Source of the DNA: Bryobacterales bacterium
GTDB lineage: Bacteria; Acidobacteriota; Terriglobia; Bryobacterales; UBA6623
DNA: 64,000 bases
Direction of reading: 5' to 3'
Assembly: GCA_965222095.1 (NCBI GenBank)
Contig: CBDCTD010000002.1
Location: 332,626-396,625, forward strand
Positions 15,080 to 53,690 of this stretch are shown piece by piece (position 1 is the first letter of the stretch; each line of letters opens with the position of its first letter). The position numbers and the translations under genes were made by a program. The notes beneath the pieces are model-generated. The model was given only the letters and a program-made list of their open reading frames with translations, was not told the origin of the DNA and searched no databases.

Positions 15080-15775
15080 ATGGGCAAAGTCGAGTCCCCG
15101 GAAACAGAGAATCCGCAGAAACAGGCTGAGCCGGCCGAGGAATCTCAGCCCGACCACGAAGAATCCGCCCGCAGTCAGAACGAGGTCGACGGCGCCGGCT
15201 CGAACGGCTCGGCGCCCGAGGAAGAAGTTGCACCTCAGCCCGGCGGCGCTGAGGCGGACGGCGAGTCCCCCCTCGCTGCCGCGGTCGCCGAGAGGGATCG
15301 GGCCGTGGCCGAAAAGGCCGAGCAGTTTGAGCGGTTCCAGCGCGCCCAGGCCGAATTTGAGAACTTCCGCAAACGACTCTTGCGGGAGAAGGAAGAGGCC
15401 CACGAGTACGCGGCGATGGGAACAATCGAGTCGCTGTTGCCCATCCTCGATGATTTCGAACGCGCTCTAAACGCTCCTGGGCTCGACGCTGAGTTCCGCG
15501 AGGGATGGGACCTGATCTACCAGCGGATGTTCGAAGTCTTCACGCGTGCTGGTTTGAAGCCGGTTGAAACGGAAAACACTAAATTCAACCCCTATTTCCA
15601 CCACGCTCTTGACCGCGAACCGGCCGAGAACGACGAGCAGGACCAGACGATCCTGGAAGTTTACCAGCGGGGGTATCACTTCAAAGACCGCCTGCTGAGA
15701 CCGGCCATGGTCAAGGTAGCCGTGAAAGAAGCCACCGAGCAGACGAAGGACGAGCAAGAAGAAAAAGAAGAGTAG
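15080..15775 (+). CDS. grpE: Nucleotide exchange factor GrpE
   Basis: RAQAEFENFRKR, LLPILDDFERAL, FNPYFHHA, YQRGY..LLRPAMVKV. Confidence 0.95.
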   Translation: MGKVESPETENPQKQAEPAEESQPDHEESARSQNEVDGAGSNGSAPEEEVAPQPGGAEADGESPLAAAVAERDRAVAEKAEQFERFQRAQAEFENFRKRLLREKEEAHEYAAMGTIESLLPILDDFERALNAPGLDAEFREGWDLIYQRMFEVFTRAGLKPVETENTKFNPYFHHALDREPAENDEQDQTILEVYQRGYHFKDRLLRPAMVKVAVKEATEQTKDEQEEKEE

Positions 15776-15972: not shown

Positions 15973-17091
15973 GTGGCAAACAAACGGGACTTTTACGAAG
16001 TGTTGGGTGTTGAGCGTGGCGCCAGGGAAGACGCGATCAAGAGCGCCTATCGCAAGCTGGCGCTGAAGTATCATCCTGACCGCAACCCCGACAGCTCGGA
16101 AGCAGAAGACAAATTCAAGGAGGCGGCCGAAGCCTACAGCGTGCTGAGCGACGCCGAAAGGCGCAGCCGCTATGACCGTTTCGGGCATGATGGGCTTGCC
16201 GGCGCAAGCGGCGGCGGATTTGACCCACGAGACTTCAGCGATTTCGCCGACATTTTCGGGGACTTCTTCGGCTTCGGTGATCTGTTCGGGGGACGGCAGC
16301 GTAGGGCCAGGCCACGACGCGGCACCGACCTGCAGTACGACCTGGAAGTGGATTTCGAAGACGCCGTCTTCGGCCTCAGTACTGAGATCCAGTTCCCACG
16401 CAACGAAGCCTGCAGCGAATGCCAGGGGTCCGGGGCGGCGGCGGGCAGCGGCCCGAGGACTTGCTCCACCTGCAGCGGTCGCGGACAGGTCTACTACCAG
16501 CAGGGGTTTTTCTCGGTGGGCCGCACCTGCTCGGCGTGCCGGGGTTCGGGCCAGGTGATCGAGAGACCCTGCGGCACCTGCGGGGGGCAAGGGCAACTCC
16601 GCAAGCAACGCAAGCTGAAGGTGAACATCCCCCCGGGCGTCGACAGTGGCACCCGACTGCGCCTCGGCGGCGAAGGAGAGGCAGGATCAGTCGGCGGCCC
16701 ACCCGGTGACTTATACGTCGTGCTAGGGGTGCGCGACCACCCGATCTTCGAGCGAGTGGAAAACGATCTGCACTGCGAAGTGCCGATCAACGTGGCACAG
16801 GCTGCGCTGGGATCCCAGATCAGCGTACCGTCACTCGAGGGACCGTCCCAGCTGAAGATTCCACCAGGTGCTGAGACTGGCCGTCAATTTCGTCTTCGCA
16901 ATCGGGGAGTGGCTCATGTACAAAGCGGCCGGCGAGGCGATTTAGTCGTGCACATCAAAGTCGTGGTTCCTTCCAAACTAACCAAAGAGCAGCGCAAGTA
17001 TTTCGAATCGTTGCTTGAGGTCCTGCCGGTCGACAACTCCCCTACGGAAAAAGGCATCTTCGACAAGGTTAAAGACTACTTCACGAACTGA
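15973..17091 (+). CDS. dnaJ: Molecular chaperone DnaJ
   Basis: J domain with HPD, G/F region, four CxxCxGxG repeats, C-terminal domain. GTG start. Confidence 0.97.
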
Positions 17092-17112: not shown

Positions 17113-17136
17113 GAGCGCGATGAATTGCGCCCCTAC
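17113..17136 (-). repeat. GTAG-type REP palindrome
   Basis: Reverse complement reads GTAGGGGCGCAATTCATCGCGCTC; 21 nt after the dnaJ stop. Confidence 0.7.
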
Positions 17137-17253
17137 TTGAGTGCAGGGAAGACTCTCGGCCCGGGTAGGGGTGTGATTCATAGCGCCCGGCTTGGGCCAT
17201 CGATTCCTTTACGCCTCCGAGTCGTCGTCGAGCTCGTTGAGTATGATGAAGGC

Positions 17254-17715
17254 GTGCCCTTCTCATTCGGCGGCCAGCTGCTTCCTGTCGGTTCCCAAGC
17301 GCCCGGTTTTCAGCTTCCTGACGAGGCCGGCAATGTCATTCGGCTGTCCGATTTCCACGGTGGCCGCCCAGTAGTGCTTGTCTTCTACGTCATGGACGCA
17401 ACGCCCGGCTGACGCAAGCAACTATGTCAGTTGCGGGACAACTGGGCGGCCTTCAAGGAGCACAGCATCACACTGTTCGGCGTTAACCCCGGCAGCGCCC
17501 GCAGACATCAGAAGTTCAAAAGCGCTCACCAGTTTCCGTTCCCGTTGCTGGTTGACAAGGGAAGAAAGGTTGCCGCTCGCTACGGCGCGGGCGGGTTTCT
17601 TGTCAAACGGACTGTCTACGGTGTCGGGATCGACGGGCGCGTCCGCTTCGCGGAGCGCGGCATGCCGTCCCCGGAGAGAATCCTGGCGGCCGTCAAGGAC
17701 GCTACAGTCGGCTAG
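17254..17715 (+). CDS. bcp: BCP/PrxQ peroxiredoxin with in-frame UGA at the peroxidatic position (probable selenoprotein)
   Basis: ORFs 17125-17412 and 17431-17715 share a frame. Joined they read ...APGFQLPD...VVLVFYVMDATPG-(TGA 17410-17412)-RKQLCQLRD...FPFPLLVD...VKRTVY, i.e. TPGC-x4-C of BCP with C replaced by UGA. Confidence 0.8.
17413..17445 (+). promoter_or_regulatory. Candidate bacterial SECIS element
   Basis: Hairpins immediately 3' of the UGA: GCAACT-atgtc-AGTTGC (17418-17434) and CAGTTG-cggga-CAACTG (17428-17444), both with G-containing loops. Confidence 0.55.
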
Positions 17716-17727
17716 CCCGCTTTGTGA

Positions 17728-17875
17728 CGGCGACCAGAGGCCGCTTCCCGGGGGACTTCTCGCAACATCCCCTTTTCATAGTCAATTCCGGCCGGGACGC
17801 AGCCGACCGGGGCTAGCGGGCAACGGCGACCAGAGGTCGCCGCCGCGGGCCGGAAGCCCGCGCCACAGGGTGTCA
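17728..17875. repeat. REP-like palindrome cluster between convergent genes
   Basis: ACGGCGACCAGAGG(C/T)CGC occurs twice (about 17728 and 17823; the second is the full GGCGAC-cagag-GTCGCC hairpin), plus GCGGGC-cggaa-GCCCGC. Confidence 0.5.
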
Positions 17876-27820: not shown

Positions 27821-29503
27821 TCAGAAAAGCCCTTCGATCGAGCCGTCCGGGTCAACCCGCATGCGCTCGGCGGCCGGGGATTTTGGAAGCCCGGGCATCG
27901 TGAGGATGTCCCCTGCGACAGCCACGATGAAACCCGCACCGGCGGAGGGATAGAGATGTTGCACCTTGAGACGAAATCCGCTGGGCGTGCCTAGCCGTGA
28001 AGCTTTATCGGATAGCGAATACTGCGTTTTGGCGATGCAAACCGGTGTGTCAGCTAAACCAAAGGACTCGAGATCGCCAATTTCCCGCTCGGCTGGCGTC
28101 GTGTAGTCCACACCATCAGCACCATAGATCTCGCGGGCAATGACCTCGATCTTCTGCTTGATCGGAAGGGCAGCGCCATAGAGAGGACGAAAGTCGGCTT
28201 TTCCTGAGTCGAGAAGCGCAACCAGGGCTTCGGCAACTTCCAGGCCGCCCTCGCCGCCTTTCTCCCAGACTTCGCAGACGAGTACAGGTACGTTTTCTGC
28301 AGAGCACCCTTCGCGAACCGCCGACACTTCCTCTTCGGTGTCTTCTAGAAAGCGATTAAGGACGACGATCAACGGGACGCCGAATTTCTTGACGTTCTGG
28401 ATGTGTCGCCGCAGGTTGACCGCACCCCGCTCGACGGCCGCCGGGTCCGCGGCTTTGAGTTGAGACCTCTTCACACCGCCATGCGTTTTGAGTGCCCTCA
28501 CCGTTGCGACAAGAATCGCCGCCTGCGGCTGCAAGCCTGCCATGCGGCACTTGATGTTGAAAAACTTCTCCGCCCCTAGGTCGGACCCGAATCCGGCTTC
28601 GGTCAGCACGATGTCCGTCGTCGCCAGCCCCATTCGCGTCGCCAGCACGGAGTTGCATCCGTGGGCGATGTTGCCGAACGGCCCGCAGTGTACGAACGCC
28701 GGGCCGCCCTCGAGAGTCTGAACGAGGTTCGGCATGAGGGCGTCCTTGAGGAGCAAAGTCATGGCGCCGTGGGCTTTAAGATCGCGCGCGGTAACCGGCG
28801 CGTTGCTAAAGGTCGCCCCGAGAACGATGCGCGCCAGCCGCCCTTCCAAATCCTCCAGTCCTTCCGCCAACGCCATGATGGCCATCACCTCGCTGGCCGG
28901 GGTAATCACAAAACGATCCTCGCGCGAGGGTCCGGATCTCAAGCGTCCCAGCCCGGTTACGGCGTGACGCAAAGCGCGATCATTCATGTCGATCGCTCGC
29001 GGCCAGGTGAGATGGCGGGGATCGATCAATAGCGCGTTGCCGCGGTGCAGATGGTTGTCGAGCATGGCCGACAACAGGTTGTGGGCGCAGGTGATGGCAT
29101 GGAAGTCGCCGGTGAAGTGGAGGTTAATGTCCTCCATCGGTAGCACCTGGGAATAGCCCCCTCCGGCCGCCCCTCCTTTTAGACCGAAAACCGGCCCTAA
29201 GCTGGGCTCCCGAATACAAGCTACGGCGTTGTGTCCCAGTCGGCGGAGCGCTTGCGCGACACCGACGGTCACCGTTGACTTCCCTTCGCCTGCTGAGGTG
29301 GGGTTCATTCCGGTGACGAGTACAAGGCGTCCCCGCGGAGGCCTTTGCTCGAGAGCCGCCAACTTGACCTTCGTCTTGTACTCGCCAAAGAGCACCAAGT
29401 CGTCTTGCTCGAGGCCCAGTTCCGCAGCGACATCGCGAATAGGGCGTAGCTTCGCCCGCTGCGCGATCTCGATATCAGGTGGAATGGCGACTTTTTGCGG
29501 CAC
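27821..29503 (-). CDS. fhs: Formate--tetrahydrofolate ligase
   Basis: TSAGEGKST, REPSLGPVFGLKGGAAGGGY, LHFTGDFHAI, CGPFGNIAHG, TEAGFG, AKTQYSLSD. Confidence 0.97.
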   Translation of the reverse strand: MPQKVAIPPDIEIAQRAKLRPIRDVAAELGLEQDDLVLFGEYKTKVKLAALEQRPPRGRLVLVTGMNPTSAGEGKSTVTVGVAQALRRLGHNAVACIREPSLGPVFGLKGGAAGGGYSQVLPMEDINLHFTGDFHAITCAHNLLSAMLDNHLHRGNALLIDPRHLTWPRAIDMNDRALRHAVTGLGRLRSGPSREDRFVITPASEVMAIMALAEGLEDLEGRLARIVLGATFSNAPVTARDLKAHGAMTLLLKDALMPNLVQTLEGGPAFVHCGPFGNIAHGCNSVLATRMGLATTDIVLTEAGFGSDLGAEKFFNIKCRMAGLQPQAAILVATVRALKTHGGVKRSQLKAADPAAVERGAVNLRRHIQNVKKFGVPLIVVLNRFLEDTEEEVSAVREGCSAENVPVLVCEVWEKGGEGGLEVAEALVALLDSGKADFRPLYGAALPIKQKIEVIAREIYGADGVDYTTPAEREIGDLESFGLADTPVCIAKTQYSLSDKASRLGTPSGFRLKVQHLYPSAGAGFIVAVAGDILTMPGLPKSPAAERMRVDPDGSIEGLF

Positions 29504-29553
29504 GCTGAGTGGTTCCTTGGTGATCGCTAGGCCGGCTGTCGGGGGAAAAGTCG

Positions 29554-30756
29554 CTAGGAGAACAAAAGGTACGGATTCTCCAATAGGCTCTTCAGTGTCT
29601 TGAGGAAATCAGCCGCGACTGCACCATCTACGGCGCGGTGATCGACATTGACCGTCACCTGCATCGTCGGTCGAAGCGCGATCTGGTCATTCGCTTTTAC
29701 CGCCCTGTCCGTAACCGTTCCGACGGATAGGATGCCGATCTCCGGCGGGTTCACAATCGCCGTAAATTGTTCGACACCGAACATTCCCAAGTTCGAGATC
29801 GTGAACGTGCCGCCTTTGATCTCGTCCGATCGGAGGCGGCCGCTTCGCGCGCGCGAGAGTAGGTCCTGCATTTCAACGTGGACGTCAGTGAGCTTTTTGC
29901 GACCCACATCGCGGACGACCGGCACGATGAGTCCATCTTCCAGCGCCACCGCGATCCCCAGATGAATCGCGGAGTATTGATGGATCTCCTCATCCACGAA
30001 GTGGGCATTGAGGCGGGGGTGCTTTTCAAGAGCCGCGGCGGTCACTTTCGCCAGCACTGGCGTCATCTTGAGTGGCGCGCCGGTTTCGGACCCGACTTGG
30101 GAGCTGAGACGTTCGACCAACCGCTGTAGCTCCCCTACATCCACTGAGAGGGAAAGTGAGATGTGCGGCGCGGCCTGGGCGCTCTGCTGCATGCGCTCCG
30201 CGATGATTCTGCGTTTGCCCTTCAGCGGTATGATTTCGTATTCCTGTTCCGCAACGGACGGAGCTGCTGCCGCTCCTCGATGCTGTGCCACATCGGCGGC
30301 GAGCACGGCCCCATCGGGACCCGAGCCGCGCACACTCGCCAGTGAGACTCCCGCTTCCACGGCGAGCCGGCGCGCCTTGGGCGAGGCCAGTGGCAGTTTT
30401 CCGACGGTAGGCTGTGCGGCTTGTGACGGCGCTTGCGCGGCTCCGTCCGCCGAGACAGAGCTTTCGGCGGCGGGGGCCGCAACGGTTTCAGCCACAGCTC
30501 CCTCGGGGGCGCTTTCGCCTTCCGCGAGCAGTACCGCCACTACCTGTCCAACGGGGATCTCGTCGCCCTCCTTGGCGCTGACGTTCGCCAGGGTTCCCGA
30601 TCCCGGAGCTTCAAACTCGAAGACCGTCTTGTCGGTTTCGATCTCCATCACGGGCTCGCCCTGTTTTACGAACTCTCCCTCGGCCTTGAGCCAGCGCACG
30701 AGAATGCCGCTGTCTTGGGCCATTTCGACCGCGGGCATGACGATTTCAACTGCCAC
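29554..30756 (-). CDS. Dihydrolipoamide acyltransferase E2 (AcoC/PdhC-like)
   Basis: One lipoyl domain (ETDKT), E1/E3-binding ASPKARRLA, TFTISNLG, catalytic DHRAVDG. Confidence 0.92.
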   Translation of the reverse strand: MAVEIVMPAVEMAQDSGILVRWLKAEGEFVKQGEPVMEIETDKTVFEFEAPGSGTLANVSAKEGDEIPVGQVVAVLLAEGESAPEGAVAETVAAPAAESSVSADGAAQAPSQAAQPTVGKLPLASPKARRLAVEAGVSLASVRGSGPDGAVLAADVAQHRGAAAAPSVAEQEYEIIPLKGKRRIIAERMQQSAQAAPHISLSLSVDVGELQRLVERLSSQVGSETGAPLKMTPVLAKVTAAALEKHPRLNAHFVDEEIHQYSAIHLGIAVALEDGLIVPVVRDVGRKKLTDVHVEMQDLLSRARSGRLRSDEIKGGTFTISNLGMFGVEQFTAIVNPPEIGILSVGTVTDRAVKANDQIALRPTMQVTVNVDHRAVDGAVAADFLKTLKSLLENPYLLFS

Positions 30757-30765
30757 GAATCCTCC

Positions 30766-31767
30766 TTAGCGCCCGAGCATTTCTCGGGCAACGCCGACAA
30801 CGCCCTCAGTATTCGGAATTGTCTGGTCTTCCAAAGTGGGAGCGAAAGGAACAGGTACATCCATCGCTGCGATGCGCCGAACGGGGGCGTCAAGATGATA
30901 AAACGCCTTCTCGGCGATGACGGATCCCAGCTCGGCCGTTGCGCCGAACCGCCGGTAACCTTCGTCGAGGACGATGCAGCGGGACGTCTTCTTGGCCGAC
31001 GCCACGAGCGTTTCTTCGTCCAGCGGCGTCAGGGTTCGGGGGTCAATCACCTCCGCCTCGATCCCGTCCTCTGCCAGCTTGTCAGCCGCTTCGAGCGCAA
31101 CGTGAACCATGCTGGAAGTAGCGACGATTGTGAGGTCTTGTCCTTCTCTTTTCGTGTCCGCGACGCCAAAAGGAATCGCGTATTCCTCGCTGGGATCCGG
31201 GACGGCCCCTTTCTGCTGGTACATCATCTTGTCCTCAAAGAACACGACAGGGTTGTTGTCGCGGATGGCCGTTTTCAGTAAGCCCTTTGCGTCGTAGGGC
31301 GTTGAAGGCAATGCGACCTTGAGACCGGGTATGTGCGAAACCCAGGCTTGCAGACTCTGCGAATGCTGCGCGGCGGCGCGCCGTCCGGCCCCCATCGTTG
31401 TGCGAACGACGAGCGGAACGGTGAATTTCCCCCCGGACATGTAGTGGATCTTGGCCGCCTGGTTGACGAGCTGATCCATCGACAACGTCATGAAATCCCC
31501 GAACATGATTTCGACAATCGGGCGGATGCCTGTCAGGGCGCCGCCGACGGCGAGGCCGGTGAATCCGGCTTCTGAAATCGGGGTATCGATGACGCGCGCC
31601 GGCCCGAATTCGTCCAGGATTCCCTGTGTGACCTTGAGGACCCCGCCGGGCGCTGCGACGTCCTCGCCCAAGAGGACCACGGTTTCATCCCGGCGCATTT
31701 CCTCGCGGATGGCCTCATTGATGGCCTCCGAGATGGTGATCTGCCTACCGTTAGTCGGCGTAGACAT
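30766..31767 (-). CDS. TPP-dependent dehydrogenase E1 beta (AcoB-like)
   Basis: LGEDV, DTPISEAGF, EIMFGDF, AAQHSQS, PGLKV. Confidence 0.93.
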   Translation of the reverse strand: MSTPTNGRQITISEAINEAIREEMRRDETVVLLGEDVAAPGGVLKVTQGILDEFGPARVIDTPISEAGFTGLAVGGALTGIRPIVEIMFGDFMTLSMDQLVNQAAKIHYMSGGKFTVPLVVRTTMGAGRRAAAQHSQSLQAWVSHIPGLKVALPSTPYDAKGLLKTAIRDNNPVVFFEDKMMYQQKGAVPDPSEEYAIPFGVADTKREGQDLTIVATSSMVHVALEAADKLAEDGIEAEVIDPRTLTPLDEETLVASAKKTSRCIVLDEGYRRFGATAELGSVIAEKAFYHLDAPVRRIAAMDVPVPFAPTLEDQTIPNTEGVVGVAREMLGR

Positions 31768-32743
31768 GTCGTGTGACCTCCTCGGCTTCCGGAAACGGAG
31801 CCTGCTTCGCGTATTTGACGGCCGCTTCCACCTCCGCGGCCACCTCTTTCCCGATGGATTCTAGGTCAGCTTCGCTCGCGTGTCCGGCGCTGCTGATTTT
31901 GCCGGCAAGGCGATCGATGGGATCACGTTGTTCGCGCCATTCCCGCTCTTCCTCTCGCGTGCGATAGGCGCGCTGGATGTCGCTCATGCCGTGTCCGCCA
32001 TGGCGGTAGGTCTCCAAGACGAGGAAACTCGGGCCCTGGCCGGCGCGCCCCCGATCGACAGCTTCCAGAGCCGCTTCACGGACGGCGAGGACGTCCATCC
32101 CATCTACCGTTGATGACGCAATGTCGAATGCTTTGCCGCGCTCTATGATGTTCCCCGCGGTTACATTTTGCATGGGCGTGTACTCGCCGTATTGGTTGTT
32201 TTCGCAGGCGTAGATGACCGGTAGCTTCCATATGGAGGCCATGTTCAGGGATTCGAGCAGCACTCCTTGATTCGCTGCTCCGTCACCGAAGAAACAAACC
32301 GCCACCTGGTCCGTCTTTCGGACCTTGGCGCTGAAAGCGGCCCCGGTAGCGATCGGTATGCTGCCCCCGACGATGGCGTTGGCGCCCAGGTTGCCCATTT
32401 CCTGATTGGCAATGTGCATCGAGCCGCCCTTGCCCCGGCAGTAGCCGGCCTCTTTGCCGAACAGCTCGGCGAACATGCGGCCCATGTCGGCGCCTTTGGC
32501 CAAGCAGTGTCCGTGACCACGGTGCGTGCTGGTGATGTAATCGTCCGCCCGAAGAGCCGAGCAGACGCCCACGGCAACCGCCTCTTGCCCGATGGAGACG
32601 TGTGCAATGCCGATGATCACCGTGCCGCGATAGAGTTCCTGGACCTTGCCTTCAAAGGTGCGAATGGTGACCATTCGGGTGTAAAGGTCCAGGAGTTGGT
32701 CCTTCGTTACGTCTTTGTCGATTACTGCGGAAGTGTTTGTCAT
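31751..32743 (-). CDS. TPP-dependent dehydrogenase E1 alpha (AcoA-like)
   Basis: GQEA, STHRGHGH, GKGGSMH, TPP motif GDGA...ENN. Confidence 0.93.
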   Translation of the reverse strand: MTNTSAVIDKDVTKDQLLDLYTRMVTIRTFEGKVQELYRGTVIIGIAHVSIGQEAVAVGVCSALRADDYITSTHRGHGHCLAKGADMGRMFAELFGKEAGYCRGKGGSMHIANQEMGNLGANAIVGGSIPIATGAAFSAKVRKTDQVAVCFFGDGAANQGVLLESLNMASIWKLPVIYACENNQYGEYTPMQNVTAGNIIERGKAFDIASSTVDGMDVLAVREAALEAVDRGRAGQGPSFLVLETYRHGGHGMSDIQRAYRTREEEREWREQRDPIDRLAGKISSAGHASEADLESIGKEVAAEVEAAVKYAKQAPFPEAEEVTRHVYAD

Positions 32744-32957
32744 TGTGATACTCGTCTGTTCGTCCCAAAGTCGCCGGCGCTGGTTTCCTAGATCAGGGCG
32801 CGTGATTCCACGCCGCGCGGGTGAAACTCACCACAGAGCCACGCCCGTGAGGGCAGGGGCCCTGGGCCCGCAAGCTCACGCTTGCGGCTCTGTTTCAGTG
32901 TTCGCTTCGCATTCTTGCGGTCGCGGCTGTACGGCTCTCAGCGGCGCCTATCGCGGC

Positions 32958-33233
32958 TCACTCCTTGCCGGCTATGCCGCTCCATTGTCGCTCAAGTTCG
33001 CTTACCAGCGCGTCCAGAACTTCCTCGGTACTTCCCGGCCTTTCCTGCTTAGCGCTCCACTGCCACTGGTTGAGGTAGTCATCCGTCCCCGCCAGCCCTT
33101 CTTCCATTGCCACGCGGTCGATCTCTTCCTGGAAGTAAGAGGGCAGCGGTCGCGACACCGGCCTGCGGCCGTGTTCGGATACTTTCACCTGGGCCGGGAT
33201 GTCTTTCCAGTAAAGAACCTGGTAGATCGCCAT
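32958..33233 (-). CDS. Small 'virulence factor' (CvfA/B-like) domain protein associated with methyl-transfer clusters
   Basis: YWKDIPAQV...FQEEIDRVAM...DDYLNQW pattern, recalled from family knowledge; ATG 33233. Confidence 0.75.
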   Translation of the reverse strand: MAIYQVLYWKDIPAQVKVSEHGRRPVSRPLPSYFQEEIDRVAMEEGLAGTDDYLNQWQWSAKQERPGSTEEVLDALVSELERQWSGIAGKE

Positions 33234-33249
33234 CGCCAAGAGATTCCTT

Positions 33250-34302
33250 TCAATTTGCTTTAGCCGGTTGCAGCTCTCCTTTTCGATAGGCGCGGAGGAA
33301 TTTCTTGCAAAAGCGATCACGGCCCAGCAGCATGTCCTCGGCCAGCTTGTAGCGCGCCGTGGTTTTGTCGATCGAGAAGACTTCGTTCATCTTGCCCGTA
33401 ACGGGGTCGACGATGCCACTGTCGGCGCCGGCATCCACCGCCAAGTTGGCGAAGGCGTCATTGATCAACCGGCGGCTCGGCAGTCCGAACGATACGTTAC
33501 TGAATCCTCCGGTGATGTGAATCTCGGGACCGCACTTCTGTCGCAGCTCGCGGACGGCGTCGAAATAATGATTGCAAAATTCACCGTCGACCGATATTGG
33601 GAACACGAGCCCGTCGACGTAGATCTTGCTCAATGGGATGCCCTTTTCGACGGCGGCGTCGACCATGCGGGAGGCGTTTGTCACGCGCTGCTCATCGTTC
33701 TGCGGCATGCCCGACTCGCCGGCCGCCGTAGCGATGACGGGATGGCCACCTGCCTGGGCCAAGTCCAGCGCCTCGACTCGTTCGAGAGACGCCGAGTTCA
33801 ACATCGGGGTTCCGGCTTGAGACCGGCAGGCCGCCAGACCGGCTTCGATGATCTCGATGTTGGACGAATCCACCGACACTGGGACCGGTGCGAGCGGCTC
33901 CACGAATTCTACCAACCAACGAATGGCCGCCTTTTGGTCGTCAAGCGATATGGAAATTTCGTCGACGTTGAGGTCTAAGAAATCCGCGCCCGCATCAACT
34001 TGGCGCTGGACGATGGTGGCGATGTATTCCCGCCCTTCGCCGGCAGCAGGCTCCTCGCCTGACATAGCAGCCTGCACGGCGATCTTGACGTGCTTGACGC
34101 GGCCCTCGTCGTAGTCTTGGGTTTTCTTCGCCTTTTCGGGGATGATCAGAAAGCGCGTTTCCCCGTCACGCGCAACGTAGCGAACCGCCTCGTTGCCCGC
34201 GGGGTCGGTCGTTACTCGTTTGCCCTTGCGAAGCACAATCCGCGTGCAGTGAGTATTTTCTCCGATGACCATGAACTCTCGATCCAGTCCGGCGACTTTC
34301 AT
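33250..34302 (-). CDS. Methyltetrahydrofolate:corrinoid methyltransferase (AcsE/MetH pterin-binding fold)
   Basis: IGEN, GADFLDLNVD, SVDSSN, LNSAS, DGLVFPI, GFSNVSFGLP, GIVDP. Confidence 0.85.
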   Translation of the reverse strand: MKVAGLDREFMVIGENTHCTRIVLRKGKRVTTDPAGNEAVRYVARDGETRFLIIPEKAKKTQDYDEGRVKHVKIAVQAAMSGEEPAAGEGREYIATIVQRQVDAGADFLDLNVDEISISLDDQKAAIRWLVEFVEPLAPVPVSVDSSNIEIIEAGLAACRSQAGTPMLNSASLERVEALDLAQAGGHPVIATAAGESGMPQNDEQRVTNASRMVDAAVEKGIPLSKIYVDGLVFPISVDGEFCNHYFDAVRELRQKCGPEIHITGGFSNVSFGLPSRRLINDAFANLAVDAGADSGIVDPVTGKMNEVFSIDKTTARYKLAEDMLLGRDRFCKKFLRAYRKGELQPAKAN

Positions 34303-35924
34303 TCCGAGTTGTCCTCGTTTCGGCTCACTTTGGCGTGATGATCACGCTCCAGGAAGGTATTGGCCCAGGCGCTGGTTCCCTTGAGGGCGCCATCTCGAAA
34401 CACGACGGGCCGGCCGATGAGCTTATCTTCTTCGCCGTAGCCCTTCAATCGATCATAGGCACGCGACCATATGCAGTCCTTCTCGCCGACTTCGCATTTG
34501 CCTCCCGGCCGCGTTCCTCCGCACGGCCCGTTGCGCTGGTTTTTGACGCACTGTGACTCCGGGCAGAGGAAAGCGATCTCGGGGAGGGCGCAGTCGCCGC
34601 AGTCCTTGCAGTCAAAAGCTGCGATCTTGAGCGCTTGTTCGGCGCCGTGCATGGCTGCCCGCACGCCATGGCCTGCACGCTCCACCCTTTCGTAGATAGC
34701 TCGGCCTGCACGGAATCCTAGGGTCCCTTTCTCGAACACCTTGTCGTGCGCGAGGCGATTGAATCTGTAGGCGATCGGCGCCTTCCGTCGGGCGGCCCGC
34801 AGGCCCTCGGGCGTTTTCGACTGTGCGTAGCGGCGATTAACCTCGGTTGAGCTGAGGCCCGTCTCGGGATCCCGCTCGAAGTGGTAGAACTCGTCGGGCT
34901 GATGGAACAGAATTTCGCGAGCAAACTGTTTCCAGTCATCCTCCGCGAAGCCAGCCGCCAGGCTGAGGATTTTTTCGTAGTCCTTGTATCGCAGGTGCCC
35001 TCCCAGGTACACGCCGCGAAAACCCAACCCGCGTGCCACCGCGCACTGCTTGGCGGCCAGTTCCAGGAAAAACGCCTTGCCGCGGTCGGGGGAAGCGGCT
35101 TGCTTTTCCGCGATACGAAACAGCTCATCGGGCAGTACAACTCCGGGGATATTCCCTCCGTGAAAGAACCGAGCCGCGGGCACGCTGAGCACATAGACGT
35201 TCGCTAGCACCGGGGCGTTCAGTTCGTGCATCCGCATGTACTTGAGCAACTCGTCTTGCTTACGAGAGTCGTAGCCGATCTGGTTGATGATGAACGCCGC
35301 CCCGTTTTCGACCTTCTTCGCCAGTTTGAAATACTGCGGCATGACTTCCCGCTCGGCCTGCTTGTAATTGTTGACGACGGCCCCGAGGAAGAAATTGGTC
35401 TGTTCGAGAGGTTTCTCCGGCCGCGCGTCCCCGTTCGAGAGCCGGACACCGGCGTTCATGTCGGAGTACATGCGAAGAAGTCCGATCGAATCGATATCGA
35501 ATACGCCCGCCGCCTGGCCCTGGTAGCTGGGCGTGGGACAGTCGCCGGAAAGCGCCAGGACGTTGTCGAACCCCTCGCTGGCCAGCTTCCAGCCGCGGCT
35601 TTGGAGCGCATTGCGATTCCAGTCTTTGCACGACAGGTGAATGATGACCTCTTGTCCGCGGGAGATAAGATCGGTACCCAAGGTGTCGGCGCTCAACATG
35701 GCGTTGCCGCCGGGGTTGTCCGTGATGCTGAGGGCGTGGACCTGGGGATGCTCGGCAAGCGCTCGGGCAAGAGACAGCACTTTCCTTCCCCGTCGCTCGG
35801 TAATCAGGCCTCGGGAGGTGACCAGCTCCGCGCAGGTGACAAAGGTCTCGCTCTGCTGGAGGAGGCGGCGCAGCGACGGCTTGGTCCAAGCATCCGTTCG
35901 CGGGGTCGTGTGAGCCGTGGCCAA
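34299..35924 (-). CDS. metF: Methylenetetrahydrofolate reductase MetF fused to a C-terminal MetV-like Cys-rich domain
   Basis: SITDNPGG, HLSCKDWN, LALSGD, KKVENGAAFIINQ; C-terminus CKDCGDC...CPESQCVKNQRNGPCGG...CEV...CIW. Confidence 0.88.
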   Translation of the reverse strand: MATAHTTPRTDAWTKPSLRRLLQQSETFVTCAELVTSRGLITERRGRKVLSLARALAEHPQVHALSITDNPGGNAMLSADTLGTDLISRGQEVIIHLSCKDWNRNALQSRGWKLASEGFDNVLALSGDCPTPSYQGQAAGVFDIDSIGLLRMYSDMNAGVRLSNGDARPEKPLEQTNFFLGAVVNNYKQAEREVMPQYFKLAKKVENGAAFIINQIGYDSRKQDELLKYMRMHELNAPVLANVYVLSVPAARFFHGGNIPGVVLPDELFRIAEKQAASPDRGKAFFLELAAKQCAVARGLGFRGVYLGGHLRYKDYEKILSLAAGFAEDDWKQFAREILFHQPDEFYHFERDPETGLSSTEVNRRYAQSKTPEGLRAARRKAPIAYRFNRLAHDKVFEKGTLGFRAGRAIYERVERAGHGVRAAMHGAEQALKIAAFDCKDCGDCALPEIAFLCPESQCVKNQRNGPCGGTRPGGKCEVGEKDCIWSRAYDRLKGYGEEDKLIGRPVVFRDGALKGTSAWANTFLERDHHAKVSRNEDNSE

Positions 35925-35943
35925 GGCTATCTACCGTATCCTT

Positions 35944-37581
35944 TCAAGCAACCGCCGAGAAGTCGAAATCCGCCGGCATGGGTTTGAATTGACAGGCCTC
36001 GACGAAGATCTCAAAGAAATCGGGCGTAGTCTCTAACTCCACATGTTCGATTTGTTGCGCCAGCTTCTCGATCGATTGGCGCTTGGAACGCGATAGCAGC
36101 ATCTCTTTGGCGCCCAGCGCCGCGGCGTTGCCGATCTTGACAATACGGTCCTCCGGCACCGGAGCCAGAAAACCGATCTCGATCGCATTCCTGACGTTGA
36201 CGTAGTTCGCAAAGCCGCCCGCGAGGTAAAGCTTGCTGATGTCCGCGGGCCGAACGCCGTAGTTGCGCATGACGATGAACTGTCCGCAATAGTTCGCCGC
36301 CTTGGCCTGCGCCAGATTGCTGGCGTCGAGACGTGAAAGGGTGATCCCATATTCGGGAACGATGTCGAGTTCCCGTGCCTTGTTCGGGAAGACGCCTTTC
36401 GGGGTCATTTGTTCGCGCCGGCGAAGTTCGGCCAGCAGATCGACGAGGCCCGATCCACACAGCCCGCGCGGCTCGCCGCCCCCAATCGTGCTGTAGTCCG
36501 CACGACCGTTTTTGAGACGAAGGGACTCGATCGCTCCGTCGACACCAGGCATTCCGTACTTGACCAGCCCACCCTCGAAAGCGGGTCCCGCCGGACACGA
36601 TGCCGCCATGAGCTTCCCGGCGTGTCCCAGCACAACCTCGGTATTGGTCCCCACATCGACAACCATGACGACTTCGCGCTGCGATTCGATATCAACCGCC
36701 ACTAAGTCCGCCAGCATGTCCGCTCCCACGTGGCTGGCGATCAGCGGAGCCCCGAATACGACCGCCTTCGGGTGAGACCAGATGCCGAGCCGGTGCGCTC
36801 TCTCTGTGAGCGTAGTCGTCTTGCGTTCGCCGGCCAGGTACTCGTGCTCGATTTGCGACTTGTACGGACGCTGGCCGATCGATTGCACATCCAAATTGAA
36901 GAACAGGTCGCGCATGGTGGAATTTCCCACCACGACAATTTCAAAGATCCGATGACGAGGGAACCCAAGCTCTCGGCACATGGTCTTCAACTGATGATTG
37001 AGCGTGCTAATCACCGACTTATGAAGTTCCCCCTGAAAAGGTCCACCGTCGTAGGAGATGCGGTGCATCACATCGCTGCCGCCAAAGCGCTGGGGGTTCT
37101 CGAAGGAAGCTAAGTAGACGCCCTCCCCCGTTTCGAGGTCGACCAGCTCGGCCACCACGGTGGTCGTGCCGAGGTCGACGGCCAAGCCGTACATCTTGCC
37201 CTGGTAGCGGTCAATCACCTCGCCGTCGTAGCAGACATTGTCGCCTTCGCGAGCCACGATCGGGTCGAGCGTGATGTTCTTCGGCAGCGAAGCGGTGAGA
37301 ATCTTGGGCTGGCTGCGAAGCAGCGAAAACCGGACATCTTCGTCGGGGTTTTCAATCACGGCCTGGCAGGCGAGGCGGTAGTCGCCGCGCAAAAACTCCT
37401 CCGCCTCGCTCGGAGCGCTCAGTGCCTCATGGCCACGATTAACCTCCACGATGCACTCGTGGCAGACGCCGGTGCGCCCGCAAGAGGTGGGCACCTGGAT
37501 GGCCAGCTCGTCGGCATAGTCGAAGATGGTCCTTCCGCCCACAAGAGGGCGCTTTAGACCGTCGTAGGATATCTCTCCCAT
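35944..37581 (-). CDS. ASKHA-domain corrinoid reductive activator (RACE/RamA/AcsV-like) with N-terminal 2Fe-2S domain
   Basis: CGRTGVCHEC...RLACQ, DLGTTT, DVGTNTE, SCPAGPAFEG, GLCGSGL, LAGGF, GNAA. Confidence 0.9.
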   Translation of the reverse strand: MGEISYDGLKRPLVGGRTIFDYADELAIQVPTSCGRTGVCHECIVEVNRGHEALSAPSEAEEFLRGDYRLACQAVIENPDEDVRFSLLRSQPKILTASLPKNITLDPIVAREGDNVCYDGEVIDRYQGKMYGLAVDLGTTTVVAELVDLETGEGVYLASFENPQRFGGSDVMHRISYDGGPFQGELHKSVISTLNHQLKTMCRELGFPRHRIFEIVVVGNSTMRDLFFNLDVQSIGQRPYKSQIEHEYLAGERKTTTLTERAHRLGIWSHPKAVVFGAPLIASHVGADMLADLVAVDIESQREVVMVVDVGTNTEVVLGHAGKLMAASCPAGPAFEGGLVKYGMPGVDGAIESLRLKNGRADYSTIGGGEPRGLCGSGLVDLLAELRRREQMTPKGVFPNKARELDIVPEYGITLSRLDASNLAQAKAANYCGQFIVMRNYGVRPADISKLYLAGGFANYVNVRNAIEIGFLAPVPEDRIVKIGNAAALGAKEMLLSRSKRQSIEKLAQQIEHVELETTPDFFEIFVEACQFKPMPADFDFSAVA

Positions 37582-37705
37582 GGGGAACCGGGTCAGTGCG
37601 CGGAGGCCAACAGGTCTACGTGCCGCTCGCCGGCGAGTTGCCTTGCCGAACTATGCGCGCGCAAGCAAGCGATCGAGTACGCCTCGCGCGAGTTGCAGTC
37701 CGCCC

Positions 37706-37948
37706 CTACGTCGTCTCCCAGGCGCCGCGGTAATCGAGCTTGTCGTCACTTGCGCAGATCAGCAGCTCTCTTGAGCGCGCGGGTTTGCGCTGGTTCCTAC
37801 AGCCGAACTGCGCCGTGCACTGATCGAAGCGGTCCTTATAGGGACAGCGCTTGGCGGAGAACTCCTCGGCGTGCCGCATCATGTCGGTGAACATTTCCGT
37901 GATGCGGTCGAGCCGCTTTTGATACTCCGCTTTGTCGATCTTTTGCAT
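37706..37948 (-). CDS. Hypothetical 80-aa four-Cys protein
   Basis: Packed in the operon 8 nt after the corrinoid gene; CPYKDRFDQCTAQFGCRNQ...C. Confidence 0.75.
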   Translation of the reverse strand: MQKIDKAEYQKRLDRITEMFTDMMRHAEEFSAKRCPYKDRFDQCTAQFGCRNQRKPARSRELLICASDDKLDYRGAWETT

Positions 37949-37956
37949 GGCTCGGG

Positions 37957-38712
37957 TCAGGCTTCGACTTCTTGGGCCATCAGATCTTTGGCGAGTTCTA
38001 CGCAGGCAACAGCATCTTTGCCGTATCCGTCGGCTCCCATATCGTCGGCAAACTCCTGCGTGACGGGCGCGCCTCCCACCATGATCTTCACGTCGTCCCG
38101 GAGGTCTGCGTCGATGAAGGCTTCAATCGTTTTGCCCATGTTCGGCATCGTGGTCGTCAGCAGCGCCGACATGCCCAACAGCGGAGCTTCATGCTCTTCG
38201 ATCGCTTCGATGAATTCGTCCGACGAAGTGTCCACGCCCAGATCGACGACTTCGAATCCCGAGCCTCGCAGCATCATGATGCACAAGTTCTTGCCAATGT
38301 CGTGCAGGTCGCCTTTCACCGTTCCCATGACGACCTTGGCGATCGGTTTGATGCCCGAGGCAGATAGAATCGGTTCGATGTGGGCCATGCCCGCTTTCAT
38401 GGCGCGGGCGCAGGCAAGCACCTCGGGGACAAAGATAAAGTTTTCTCGGAACTTGATGCCCACGATCCCCATAGCCGCGATCAGGCCGTCGTCCATGACT
38501 TCGATTGCTTCGATGCCCTCTTCGAGGGCTTTGACCGTGAGCTTGTCGACAGTTTCGTTTTCGCCCTCGATTAGGGCCGCGCCGATCTCTTGCATACTGG
38601 CCCGAGCTTTGGCGAACGTGTTGACTATGCGCTCGCGCTCGTCGGGCCGCTCAATAAATTCTTCGATTTCGTCTCGGATGAGTTCGTTCGAGATGTCGCT
38701 GATGGATGCCAT
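37957..38712 (-). CDS. Corrinoid (cobalamin-binding) protein, MtbC/MttC/MtaC-like
   Basis: Cap domain (GLIAAMGIVG..F...FVPEV), B12 motif GDLHDIGKN, SALLTTTM, VGGAP. Confidence 0.93.
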   Translation of the reverse strand: MASISDISNELIRDEIEEFIERPDERERIVNTFAKARASMQEIGAALIEGENETVDKLTVKALEEGIEAIEVMDDGLIAAMGIVGIKFRENFIFVPEVLACARAMKAGMAHIEPILSASGIKPIAKVVMGTVKGDLHDIGKNLCIMMLRGSGFEVVDLGVDTSSDEFIEAIEEHEAPLLGMSALLTTTMPNMGKTIEAFIDADLRDDVKIMVGGAPVTQEFADDMGADGYGKDAVACVELAKDLMAQEVEA

Positions 38713-38739
38713 GCTTTCGTTTCGTCCTTAGAAGTTTTC

Positions 38740-39795
38740 TCAGTTTTCCGTCGCGTGTTCGCGATGCCAGTCCTTGACAGCCTTAGGAATCTCTTTTAGG
38801 TTCTCGATCGCAGTCTGCAGTGGAATAGCACACTCAGGAGCGACGAGCTGCACTCCGGCATCGAGATTCTTGTACACTTCCTGGCGAACGTCCTCGGGTT
38901 TCTTGGCGAACAACGTTTCCGGATTGTTGATGTTCCCCACCAAAGAAATGCGATCCTTCATGATTCCCACCGATGTTTGGGGGTTATTCTTCGAATCGTA
39001 GTGGAAGGCCGCCATGCCGGTTCCCGCGATGTAATCCATGCGGTCTTCGGTCTTGCCGCAAATGTGAAGGATCAGCGGCACCGGCAGCCGCTCGGCGAAC
39101 TCGATGTGCAATTCCGTGAGGAATCGATCGTAGTATTCACCGCTAACCAGGTCGCCGGTTGCGTGATCCGGCAGCGTCAAGGCGTCCGCTCCGGCTTCAA
39201 TCTGCGCCAGACCGAATTGGATTGTCGCCTCTTTCATGCGGTCCAGGCAAAGCTTCGTCTTTCCTGGGTCGTCGAGCGACAGCAGTAGGAAGGGTTCCAC
39301 GCCGAAGCAGTGGTAGCCGAGCGACCACGGTCCCATCGTTTTCCCAATAACGGCCACTTCATCCCCGTACTCTTTCTTGAGAATCTTGATTGCCTCGGTG
39401 ACACACTTCGTGTCCTTGTGCGTCAGGAAATCCGGCGGGACCTTGATGTCGTCGGCTGTTTCCCAGATCGGCTCTCGCATTTTCACCGTCGGCCAGTTGT
39501 CCTTCTGCTCCCACTGGATCTTGCACCCGAGCGCTGAAGAATCCTGGATGATCGTGAAAACCGGCATGATGGAATCGAAACCTAACTCCGTATAGCCTGT
39601 GGCGGCCAGGCGGGCCATCAACTCGGGCTCACGGTTTGCGTCCGGGAAGGGAGCGTCTACCAGATCCATGAGCTCGACCGTCGCCACGGAGGTCGGGTTG
39701 CTGACCGGCGTCCGATCGACTGGTTCGCGGCGCAGGGCCGCCAGGACGCGCTCCCGCGGTTTCATCGGCCCAACGGTTTGTGGTGCTGCCATCAC
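38740..39795 (-). CDS. MtaA/CmuA family Zn methyltransferase (UroD fold)
   Basis: RERVLAALRREPVDR, GPWSL, AGAD, Zn ligands HICG ... APEC. Start could also be 39792 or 39765. Confidence 0.88.
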   Translation of the reverse strand: MMAAPQTVGPMKPRERVLAALRREPVDRTPVSNPTSVATVELMDLVDAPFPDANREPELMARLAATGYTELGFDSIMPVFTIIQDSSALGCKIQWEQKDNWPTVKMREPIWETADDIKVPPDFLTHKDTKCVTEAIKILKKEYGDEVAVIGKTMGPWSLGYHCFGVEPFLLLSLDDPGKTKLCLDRMKEATIQFGLAQIEAGADALTLPDHATGDLVSGEYYDRFLTELHIEFAERLPVPLILHICGKTEDRMDYIAGTGMAAFHYDSKNNPQTSVGIMKDRISLVGNINNPETLFAKKPEDVRQEVYKNLDAGVQLVAPECAIPLQTAIENLKEIPKAVKDWHREHATEN

Positions 39796-52537: not shown

Positions 52538-53690
52538 GTGTAGTGCCACATAAATAACTGGACAATAACACCCTTTTCACGGTAGGATGGTTTATGTGGC
52601 CATCCGCTGACGCTCTACCCCTCACCGCTCCGCAGCGAAACGCTCTTCGTCGCCTGGTTCGAGGAGGCAACACAGCCCAGAAAATGGCCTTACGGGCAGG
52701 CATTGTTTTGCTGTGTGCGCAGGGGTTGGCGAACCACGCCATTGCCCGCGAACTCGGCGTCAACCGCAAGACCGTCATCCTGTGGCGAAAGCGCTTCGCC
52801 CAGTCCGGCCTCGACGGACTCCGCGATCGGACGCGCCCCGGACGCAAACCGGCGCTCTCCGCTGAATTCGTCCAATGCACCCTCGATACAACGCTTCACG
52901 AGAAGCCCCGGGCGGCCACGCATTGGAGCACCCGCACCCTCGCCAAGCACTTGGGCGTCTCCAAGATGGCCATCCAGCGCGTCTGGAAAGCGCACGGACT
53001 GCAGCCCCATCGCCTCGAAACTTTCAAGCTCAGCCGCGACAAGCAGTTCGTCGAGAAACTCCGCGACGTGGTCGGTCTGTACTTGAATCCGCCCGAGCAC
53101 GCGCTGGTGCTCAGTGTCGATGAGAAAAGTCAGATCCAGGCCTTAGACCGCAGCCAGCCGGGACTGCCCCTGAAAAGGGGTCGTGCCGGCACCATGACCC
53201 ACGACTTCAAACGACATGGCACAACGACGTTGTTCGCCGCCTTCAATGTGCTCGACGGCAAGGTGATCGGCGAGTGTCTGCCGCGACATCGGCACCAGGA
53301 ATTCCTCAAATTCCTACGCAAGATCGACCGCGAAACGCCACCGGCGCTGGAGCTGCATCTGATCGTGGACAACTACTCCACGCACAAGCATGAGCAAGTG
53401 AAGAAGTGGCTCGCGAAGCACCCCCGCTTCCACTTTCACTTCATTCCCACGTCTTCTTCTTGGCTCAATCTCGTCGAGCGCTGGTTCCGCGAGCTGACAC
53501 AGAAGCGCATCCGCCGCGGCGTGTTCCGCAGTGTTCCCGAACTCGAGGCCGCCATCCACGAGTACCTGGAAGCGAGCAACCAAGCGCCCAAGCCCTTTGT
53601 CTGGACAGCTCCGGCACAAGATATCCTCGCCAAAGTCGAGCGCGCCGCCAAAACCCACGCCATTGTCCAGAACCGTTAGTGGCACTACAC
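52538..53690 (+). mobile_element. IS630-family insertion sequence, copy 1 (1153 bp)
   Basis: Terminal inverted repeats GTGTAGTGCCAC / GTGGCACTACAC flanked by duplicated TA within CTAG. Confidence 0.93.
52594..53679 (+). CDS. IS630 transposase
   Basis: HTH region, then DDE triad VDEKS / VDNYSTH / LNLVERWF. Confidence 0.95.
   Translation: MWPSADALPLTAPQRNALRRLVRGGNTAQKMALRAGIVLLCAQGLANHAIARELGVNRKTVILWRKRFAQSGLDGLRDRTRPGRKPALSAEFVQCTLDTTLHEKPRAATHWSTRTLAKHLGVSKMAIQRVWKAHGLQPHRLETFKLSRDKQFVEKLRDVVGLYLNPPEHALVLSVDEKSQIQALDRSQPGLPLKRGRAGTMTHDFKRHGTTTLFAAFNVLDGKVIGECLPRHRHQEFLKFLRKIDRETPPALELHLIVDNYSTHKHEQVKKWLAKHPRFHFHFIPTSSSWLNLVERWFRELTQKRIRRGVFRSVPELEAAIHEYLEASNQAPKPFVWTAPAQDILAKVERAAKTHAIVQNR

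Follow-up and report, generated by a model that had tools for sequence, protein, structure and literature searches.

What does a ribosome do at a TGA codon that stands exactly where a peroxiredoxin should have its catalytic cysteine? The question is raised by a gene on the forward strand, at positions 17254–17715, of a 64,000-nucleotide (nt) stretch of DNA from a Bryobacterales bacterium (GenBank assembly GCA_965222095.1, contig CBDCTD010000002.1, positions 332,626–396,625), which we refer to throughout as the window. An earlier note on this DNA had proposed that the gene is a hidden selenoprotein, a BCP-type peroxiredoxin with UGA at the peroxidatic position. Our analysis leads to the same interpretation: the gene very probably encodes a BCP/PrxQ-type peroxiredoxin in which residue 53 is selenocysteine (Sec, U), decoded from the UGA at 17410–17412. 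This interpretation draws on the conservation of the TGA, the alternation of Cys and TGA at the same codon across the family, purifying selection, and a hairpin resembling a selenocysteine insertion sequence (SECIS) that is tied to the UGA. The four alternatives weighed below (a true stop, an error or recent mutation, an alternative genetic code, and read-through with another amino acid) are all much less likely.

The interrupted gene and its relatives

The coding sequence comprises 153 codons, counted from the GTG at 17254, followed by a TAG stop. Its translation begins with VPFSFGG, leads through VLVFYVMDATPG up to the TGA, resumes with RKQLCQLRDNW, and passes through VKRTVYGVGIDG to end in ATVG; given more fully, it is VPFSFGGQLLPVGSQAPGFQLPDEAGNVIRLSDFHGGRPVVLVFYVMDATPG before the TGA and RKQLCQLRDNW...FLVKRTVYGVGIDGRVRFAERGMPSPERILAAVKDATVG after it, with no internal stop besides the single in-frame TGA at codon 53. 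The list of open reading frames (ORFs) cuts the gene in two at this codon, into 17125..17412 and 17431..17715, and this split, described in the earlier note, is apparent in the sequence, the translation, and the ORF list alike. The gene is also hidden from public annotation, as had been claimed: gene calls in the ENA metagenome assembly ERZ25069191, where the window lies on a contig of 541 kb, and on related contigs give a 94-residue C-terminal piece alone, which corresponds to 17431–17715 of the window (L094:4459–4743, L097:3001–3285, and L098:3001–3285 among the loci compared here), matches PF00578, and starts at a TTG that falls within the conserved hairpin discussed below. The N-terminal half and the Sec codon lack annotation in every assembly examined.

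The start codon is probably the GTG at 17254–17256, to judge from the sequences of relatives: Cys-containing homologues begin at the equivalent position (for example, with MSWLFGG or MAWFFGG), and loci L004 and L005 have a same-frame stop three codons 5′ of the GTG. We note in passing a block of about 28 nt, GCTCGTTGAGTATGATGAAGGCGTGCCC, at 17227–17259, which spans the GTG start, is kept in L001–L006 and L099, and has TATGAT 7 nt before the GTG. The portion 5′ of the GTG is noncoding, given the in-frame stop that it contains in L004 and L005, and the block may serve in translation initiation or as a promoter.

When the stop is replaced by Cys, residues 12–132 of the protein match Pfam AhpC-TSA (PF00578, E = 7.9e-32), covering profile positions 1–123 of 124, and Pfam Redoxin is matched as well. 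The best NCBIfam matches are the Bcp and PrxQ equivalogs (78.5 bits against a cut-off of 140 for Bcp PRK09437, and 69.4 against 260 for PrxQ NF053650); because both scores lie under the curated cut-offs, we regard the protein as belonging to a distinct, related subfamily rather than to either equivalog. The PrxU model, NF040737, scores 28.5 bits against a cut-off of 270, which places the protein outside that group. The closest solved structures are BCP/PrxQ enzymes (PDB 3drn and 5epf).

We aligned the window protein with 52 Cys homologues (53 sequences in total), and position 53, the peroxidatic position, is an invariant Cys in all 52. The canonical motif PxxxTxxC here reads V46-M-D-A-T50-P-G-U53, in which Thr is retained, TGA stands at the Cys position, and Val takes the place of Pro. 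The Val46 codon (GTC, 17389–17391) occupies a position that is Pro in at least 90% of the alignment. Thr50 (17401–17403), the catalytic Thr of TxxU, is invariant both in the 53 sequences and in all 92 members of the wider family set described below. Cys58 (TGT, 17425–17427), the resolving Cys five residues past the Sec, is Cys in at least 90% of the alignment, and in the family set is present in 27/27 TGA forms and 61/65 Cys forms. Finally, the active-site Arg119 (CGG, 17608–17610) is invariant in the 53 sequences and aligns with the Arg of VKRT in PDB 5epf. The picture of the active site drawn in the earlier note, with UGA in place of the peroxidatic Cys of a BCP protein, a resolving Cys five residues on, the catalytic Arg of VKRTVY kept, and the motif Pro changed to Val, is accordingly borne out in each of these respects.

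An orthologue scan with one genome per species yielded ten Bryobacterales (Acidobacteriota) loci in metagenome-assembled genomes (MAGs), L001–L010. At 64–95% amino acid identity, all ten have TGA at codon 53 with intact frames on either side, and three more TGA sequences (L025, L097, and L098) belong to the window's clade; the earlier note had looked to TGC or TGT in close relatives as the sign that its proposal was wrong, and these relatives instead carry TGA. Together with 13 contigs of a second type that retains the motif Pro, TGA occurs at the identical codon in 26 sequences besides the window's own, which greatly exceeds what chance would give, and in 27/27 TGA forms both parts share the same frame with no indel. 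The ratio of nonsynonymous to synonymous substitution rates (dN/dS, Nei–Gojobori) is 0.08–0.30 before and after the TGA, and 0.10–0.30 in the downstream part, while the synonymous rate (dS) is saturated, at about 2, between the L001–L006 and L007–L010 subclades. Both halves are thus intact, as had been stated, with purifying selection on each. With respect to membership among selenoproteins, the gene has an in-frame UGA facing a conserved Cys (a Cys/Sec pair), and UGA orthologues elsewhere show conserved downstream coding sequence.

These data bear directly on two of the alternatives. The conserved TGA, the dN/dS of 0.08–0.30, and the saturated dS rule out an error in sequencing or assembly, a nonsense mutation of recent origin, and a pseudogene; the same-codon TGA occurs in independent assemblies, from 10 species-level genomes and 16 contigs (3 from the window's clade, 13 Pro-type), and dN/dS remains well under 1 past the stop, so that we regard this explanation as refuted. 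The second alternative takes the public gene calls at face value, and holds that UGA 53 is a true stop separating a 52-residue N-terminal peptide from an independent 94-residue C-terminal ORF (TTG 17431–17715); in its favor, the gene calls show the 94-residue fragment alone, and the proteins P0043 and P0053 are calls of exactly this kind. However, both fragments would lack a complete thioredoxin fold and active site, no indel disturbs the common frame of the two parts in any of the TGA forms, purifying selection on the N-terminal part is as strong as that on the C-terminal part, and the supposed TTG start, lying as it does within a conserved hairpin, is without independent support. We therefore consider a true stop very improbable.

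To place the TGA forms in a broader family, we pooled the genome loci with 80 loci from a metagenome scan using the family alignment, giving 92 members, of which 27 are TGA forms and 65 are Cys forms; the Cys/TGA alternation among homologues that the earlier note had suggested looking for is thus present. In a neighbor-joining tree, the 14 TGA forms with Val at the motif-Pro position (FYVMDATPGU) form a single clade, the sister clade of which is all Cys/Pro (FYPMDETPxC). The other 13 TGA forms keep the Pro (FYPGDDTPGUTKQLCQLRDNW); they are scattered among Cys forms on the tree, a pattern that implies several Cys/Sec switches. Val at the motif-Pro position is found in 14/14 members of the window's clade and in 0/78 others (13 TGA and 65 Cys forms, all with Pro).

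One member of the collection is a mosaic. In the 762-nt scaffold L099 (L099:1–762, protein P0001), about 200 nt comprising the upstream region and codons 1–45 are 93–97% identical to the Val/TGA type (L002 and L006), and the sequence then switches, exactly at the motif between FY and the V/P position, to the Cys/Pro type, with approximately 85% identity to L026 and approximately 60% to L002. Either the assembly has produced a chimera, or gene conversion has patched Cys/Pro over Sec/Val at the same locus; since a chimera is possible, we have set it aside as an example of natural Sec-to-Cys replacement at one locus.

RNA hairpins downstream of the UGA

The earlier note had also remarked that hairpins follow the UGA, and we find two, both on the forward strand. 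Hairpin A (17418–17434, GCAACU-AUGUC-AGUUGC) and hairpin B (17427–17445, with arm UCAGUUG at 17427–17433, loop CGGGA at 17434–17438, and arm CAACUGG at 17439–17445) share the AGUUGC arm and are mutually exclusive. We propose hairpin B as the bacterial SECIS. The bacterial SECIS (bSECIS) model (PMC13188914) specifies a loop of 3–9 nt, a stem of 4–16 base pairs (bp), a G in the first two loop positions, a UGA-to-loop spacing of 16–37 nt, and a minimum free energy at or below −7.5 kcal/mol. Hairpin B, which begins 14 nt past the UGA, has a 7-bp stem, a 5-nt loop with G at position 2, and a UGA-to-loop spacing of 21 nt, all of which fall within the model's ranges. The 6-bp stem and 5-nt loop of hairpin A also have suitable sizes, but the spacing is only 11 nt and there is no G in loop positions 1–2; on these grounds, and because it is broken where hairpin B is compensated, we rejected hairpin A, which is probably not a SECIS.

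The evolutionary evidence for an RNA-level constraint tied to the UGA is strong. A run of 16 nt, GTTGCGGGACAACTGG, is unchanged in all 11 genome sequences. Among 61 columns that are degenerate and invariant in amino acid, seven are codon-invariant, and four of these seven are consecutive, at +7 to +10 (UUG-CGG-GAC-AAC); UUG makes up 17% of Leu codons in the genome, and, taken jointly, the four codons have a codon-usage probability of 1.8%. The RNAalifold consensus structure is hairpin B, which is 95.9% paired over 22 TGA forms and whose covariation score is matched by 0/500 shuffles. Four sequences carry a compensatory double change from G-C to A-U (CAGUUG/CAACUG to CAAUUG/CAAUUG), and the same substitution breaks hairpin A, which is disrupted at this position in 5 of the 21 distinct sequences counted and is 89.7% paired, without support from shuffles. 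In L088, a divergent TGA form, a hairpin with another sequence (CCCUG...CAGGG) occupies the same offset.

Comparison between the two kinds of family member points in the same direction. A conforming hairpin at exactly 21-nt spacing occurs in 24/27 TGA forms versus 5/65 Cys forms, and the energies of the best hairpins are lower in TGA than in Cys forms (Mann–Whitney p = 2e-7, not phylogenetically corrected). Among forms with the Gln-Leu pair, the Leu codon is always UUG in TGA forms, whereas in Cys forms it is CUN 13 times and UUR 8 times.

The thermodynamic evidence is moderate, and much of what counts against the interpretation of hairpin B as a SECIS lies here. Partition-function folding of free RNA gives hairpin A a probability of 0.91 and hairpin B one of 0.01, and hairpin A is the minimum-energy fold of the single free RNA, the overall energy being no better than that of shuffled sequences. 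With the first 15 nt occluded, as a model of a ribosome that has the UGA in the A site, hairpin A would be unwound and hairpin B becomes the minimum-energy structure with a probability of 0.74; across orthologues this probability spans 0.3–1.0, with values of 0.3–0.5 in several. The bare stem of hairpin B has an energy of −5.8 kcal/mol, short of the −7.5 kcal/mol cut-off (as is that of hairpin A, at −5.3 kcal/mol), although in some relatives it reaches −7.4 to −8.1 kcal/mol; the comparison with a whole-element model is imperfect because no lower stem was identified for hairpin B. Further points on the same side are a U-U mismatch in the stem of L008 and L009, the occurrence of a two-sided change at one pair only in a stem much of which is fixed by the amino acid sequence, and the retention of hairpin B in a few Cys forms.

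Four such Cys forms (L034, L038, L039, and L051), nested among the Pro-type TGA forms, carry a full hairpin B (for example, CCAAUUG-CGCGA-CAAUUGG) at codons +6 to +11, counted from the catalytic TGC. These forms may have converted recently from Sec to Cys, or may instead be "SECIS-ready" precursors. We also observed two TGA forms that have Glu-Leu for Gln-Leu and are without hairpin B (L062:1147–1215 and L085:291–360). Both have in common a candidate hairpin with arms GCGCG and CGCGC around a 10-nt loop, beginning about 21 nt past the UGA, which may represent a second SECIS variant in the family.

Decoding of the UGA and the genomic setting

Within the window, TGA ends 11 of the 28 other Pfam-supported genes, and the genetic code is therefore standard. 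An alternative code that reads every UGA as an amino acid (Trp or Gly) is refuted by this observation, and homologues show Cys, not Trp or Gly, at column 53; such a code accordingly has next to no probability.

With regard to the machinery for Sec insertion, Solibacter usitatus, a member of the same order as the window organism, is listed by Zhang et al. (2006; PMC1794560), in their supplement, with SelA, SelB, and two Sec-containing FdhA proteins. Used as a probe, Solibacter SelA has thousands of close homologues (73–90% identity) in metagenomes and MAGs, some of them named Bryobacteraceae or Acidobacteriia. The order Bryobacterales thus contains a Sec decoder, and we infer that selA, selB, selC, and selD are present in the window organism's own genome. 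Several null results weigh against this conclusion: ARAGORN finds no tRNA gene, tRNA-Sec included, in the 64-kb window; selA, selB, and selD are not among the 20 largest ORFs of the window in a Pfam scan; and two long SelA-bearing contigs could not be matched with any MAG in which the TGA gene occurs. The window also has no Rfam match at gathering thresholds. A crude scan for further TGA-interrupted genes, based on GC content at third codon positions, returned five antisense shadows of known genes and one non-protein-like candidate (position 172); the scan is insensitive, since the peroxiredoxin gene (prx) itself went unflagged.

The absence of Sec machinery from the window, the weak energy of the hairpin (−5.8 kcal/mol), and the C that follows the UGA in all Val-type sequences are what might be expected if UGA 53 were read through with a near-cognate tRNA (for Cys or Trp), helped by the hairpin or by a leaky UGA-C context, to yield a thiol or an inactive peroxiredoxin. 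We consider this improbable, even if it is the least improbable of the alternatives. TGC or TGT would give Cys far more efficiently, yet TGA has been kept across saturated synonymous divergence; moreover, the hairpin fits SECIS geometry, accepted Sec members exist in the same family, and Sec decoders are present in the order.

Reading the UGA as Sec, we infer the following sequence of events for the residue inserted, the binding of SelB, and the catalytic cycle. A ribosome arriving at the UGA would have unwound the first ~15 nt downstream, allowing hairpin B (7 bp, loop CGGGA) to form at the mRNA entrance; SelB carrying Sec-tRNA(Sec) would then bind hairpin B, so that Sec is inserted in place of chain termination. 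Hairpin B is made of the codons for Q-L-R-D-N-W, which belong to the helix bearing the resolving Cys. In the protein, by analogy with the family, the U53 selenolate, positioned and activated by Thr50 and Arg119, would attack the hydroperoxide to give a selenenic acid, which Cys58 would attack in turn to form an intramolecular selenenylsulfide. Thioredoxin dependence is common to BCP/PrxQ thiol peroxidases, and reduction of the selenenylsulfide by thioredoxin would regenerate the enzyme.

A more ambitious composite proposal, which we advance tentatively and regard as doubtful in its entirety, is that the enzyme of the Bryobacterales clade is a mechanistically distinct VxxxTxxU-x4-C variant cycling via the intramolecular selenenylsulfide, that Sec made the otherwise universal motif Pro dispensable, and that the family harbors a "latent SECIS." In the last of these, the QLRDNW motif can encode the hairpin given only a UUG Leu codon, with some Cys forms already carrying the hairpin; a latent SECIS of this kind would explain the repeated Cys/Sec switching in the subfamily.

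The gene lies just downstream of grpE (15080–15775) and dnaJ (15973–17091) on the same (+) strand, as was reported in the earlier note. We treat this arrangement as context only, as a transcription unit shared with prx is not demonstrable. The order grpE–dnaJ–prx–RRM–Vut1 is found in the closer relatives only (L001, L002, and L004–L006), with the linkage of grpE–dnaJ to prx also kept in L097 and L098; it was not detected in L003 and L007–L010, where the TGA-containing prx has a different neighborhood. Because the synteny is limited to closer relatives, we give it little weight as a functional clue. The Cys/Pro sister sequences L014, L016, and L026 share the downstream RRM gene. In a simple scan, the interval from dnaJ to prx shows neither a promoter nor a terminator; terminator-like matches around the gene fall inside coding sequence and are probably spurious.

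Several other features of the window were observed along the way. The intergenic region at 17716–17870, between the convergent prx and RRM-protein genes, contains GGCGACCAGAGGYCGCC twice (17729–17745 and 17825–17841), with no further copy in the window and two copies in 0/100 shuffles; the second copy is a perfect hairpin, and the region is flanked by the inverted repeat UAGCCCGC / GCUAGCGGGC. Possible interpretations are a bidirectional terminator and a small repeat element. On the reverse strand, 27821–39795 holds a one-carbon/corrinoid-type cluster with formate-tetrahydrofolate ligase, 2-oxoacid dehydrogenase E2, E1-beta, and E1-alpha, a pterin-binding methyltransferase-like protein, an MTHFR-like protein with a DUF5981 C-terminus, a RACo-type corrinoid activator, and a URO-D-like protein, which together resemble a methyl-corrinoid/demethylase module, unusual for Bryobacterales. 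An ORF at 52558–53679 (+) has DDE_3 transposase and helix-turn-helix domains, as in an IS630-like insertion sequence. Finally, an ORF at 1351–1962 (−) appears by eye to be Fe/Mn superoxide dismutase-like (HHGKHH...DVWEHAYYL), and would be a further antioxidant gene.

Significance and comparison with known systems

Across a clade of abundant soil Acidobacteriota, an antioxidant enzyme is missing from annotation, and the selenium dependence of these organisms is therefore under-counted. The clade also constitutes a natural experiment on the effect of selenium in the active site of a peroxiredoxin: practically every peroxiredoxin conserves the Pro of PxxxTxxC, which becomes Val only where Sec is present, and retention of the resolving Cys leads one to predict a Se-S catalytic intermediate. 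The interleaving of TGA and Cys forms, combined with a hairpin built from the QLRDNW codons, offers a concrete, testable case for the origin of Cys-to-Sec switches. None of this overturns current understanding, as Sec peroxiredoxins are an established family; the points of interest to specialists are that this clade in particular has lost the motif Pro, and that the proposed SECIS lies in the QLRDNW codons and pre-exists in some Cys forms.

The earlier note had taken as established that Sec-for-Cys peroxiredoxins exist, and the published family of peroxiredoxin (Prx) selenoproteins, with BCP-like TPGU members since 2006, agrees with this. Twelve Prx selenoproteins with a T/SxxU site were described by Zhang et al. 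(2006; PMC1794560), and 91 in 78 organisms by Peng et al. (2016; PMC5029168); PrxU of Eubacterium acidaminophilum was characterized in 2001 (Sohling et al., as cited in the review PMC13188914), and that review describes the motif as highly conserved PxxxTxxU. BCP-like TPGU/TSGU forms are listed for Geobacter metallireducens, Anaeromyxobacter dehalogenans, and Symbiobacterium thermophilum in the PMC1794560 supplement, and among the supplement sequences examined there is no Prx selenoprotein from Acidobacteriota or Bryobacterales. We found no paper on a Sec-containing BCP/PrxQ in Acidobacteriota, in a literature coverage that is incomplete and in which large selenoproteome surveys may include such sequences.

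The proposed SECIS resembles the E. coli fdhF-type element and the bSECIS model (bSECISearch; PMC13188914, Fig. 2) in being a small-loop stem-loop 3′ of the UGA within the ORF, with G(G) early in the loop and 21-nt spacing. It differs from the fdhF SECIS in that hairpin B has no sequence resemblance to it, its bare stem lies above −7.5 kcal/mol, and it has no identified lower stem.

At the protein level, the window protein shares with E. coli Bcp (PRK09437), Sulfolobus Bcp1 (3drn), and M. tuberculosis PrxQ B (5epf) the CP-x4-CR arrangement, the Thr/Arg pair, and a length of approximately 150 residues, and differs from the BCP/PrxQ thiol peroxidases in having Sec for the peroxidatic Cys and Val for the motif Pro. 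PrxU of Peptoclostridium (Eubacterium) acidaminophilum (NF040737) has the same peroxidatic Sec but belongs to a different Prx subfamily. With the Sec-Prx family, the window gene has in common the AhpC/TSA fold, a peroxidatic UGA in T-P-G-U, and a SECIS hairpin directly downstream in the coding sequence. The S. thermophilum Sec-Prx is 40% identical over 137 residues, with the blocks VNPGS...H and GMP..E.ILAAV common to both. In the BCP-like Sec sequences examined from the 2006 supplement, position +5 is N, S, or A, so that the resolving Cys is lacking, and the motif Pro is retained in most. The window's clade, in contrast, keeps Cys58 (U-x4-C) and has Val for Pro (VxxxTxxU), and its Pro-type TGA relatives also keep the Cys. 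Sec peroxiredoxins are thus already known, and what sets this gene apart is the clade-specific change of Pro to Val together with the retained resolving Cys.

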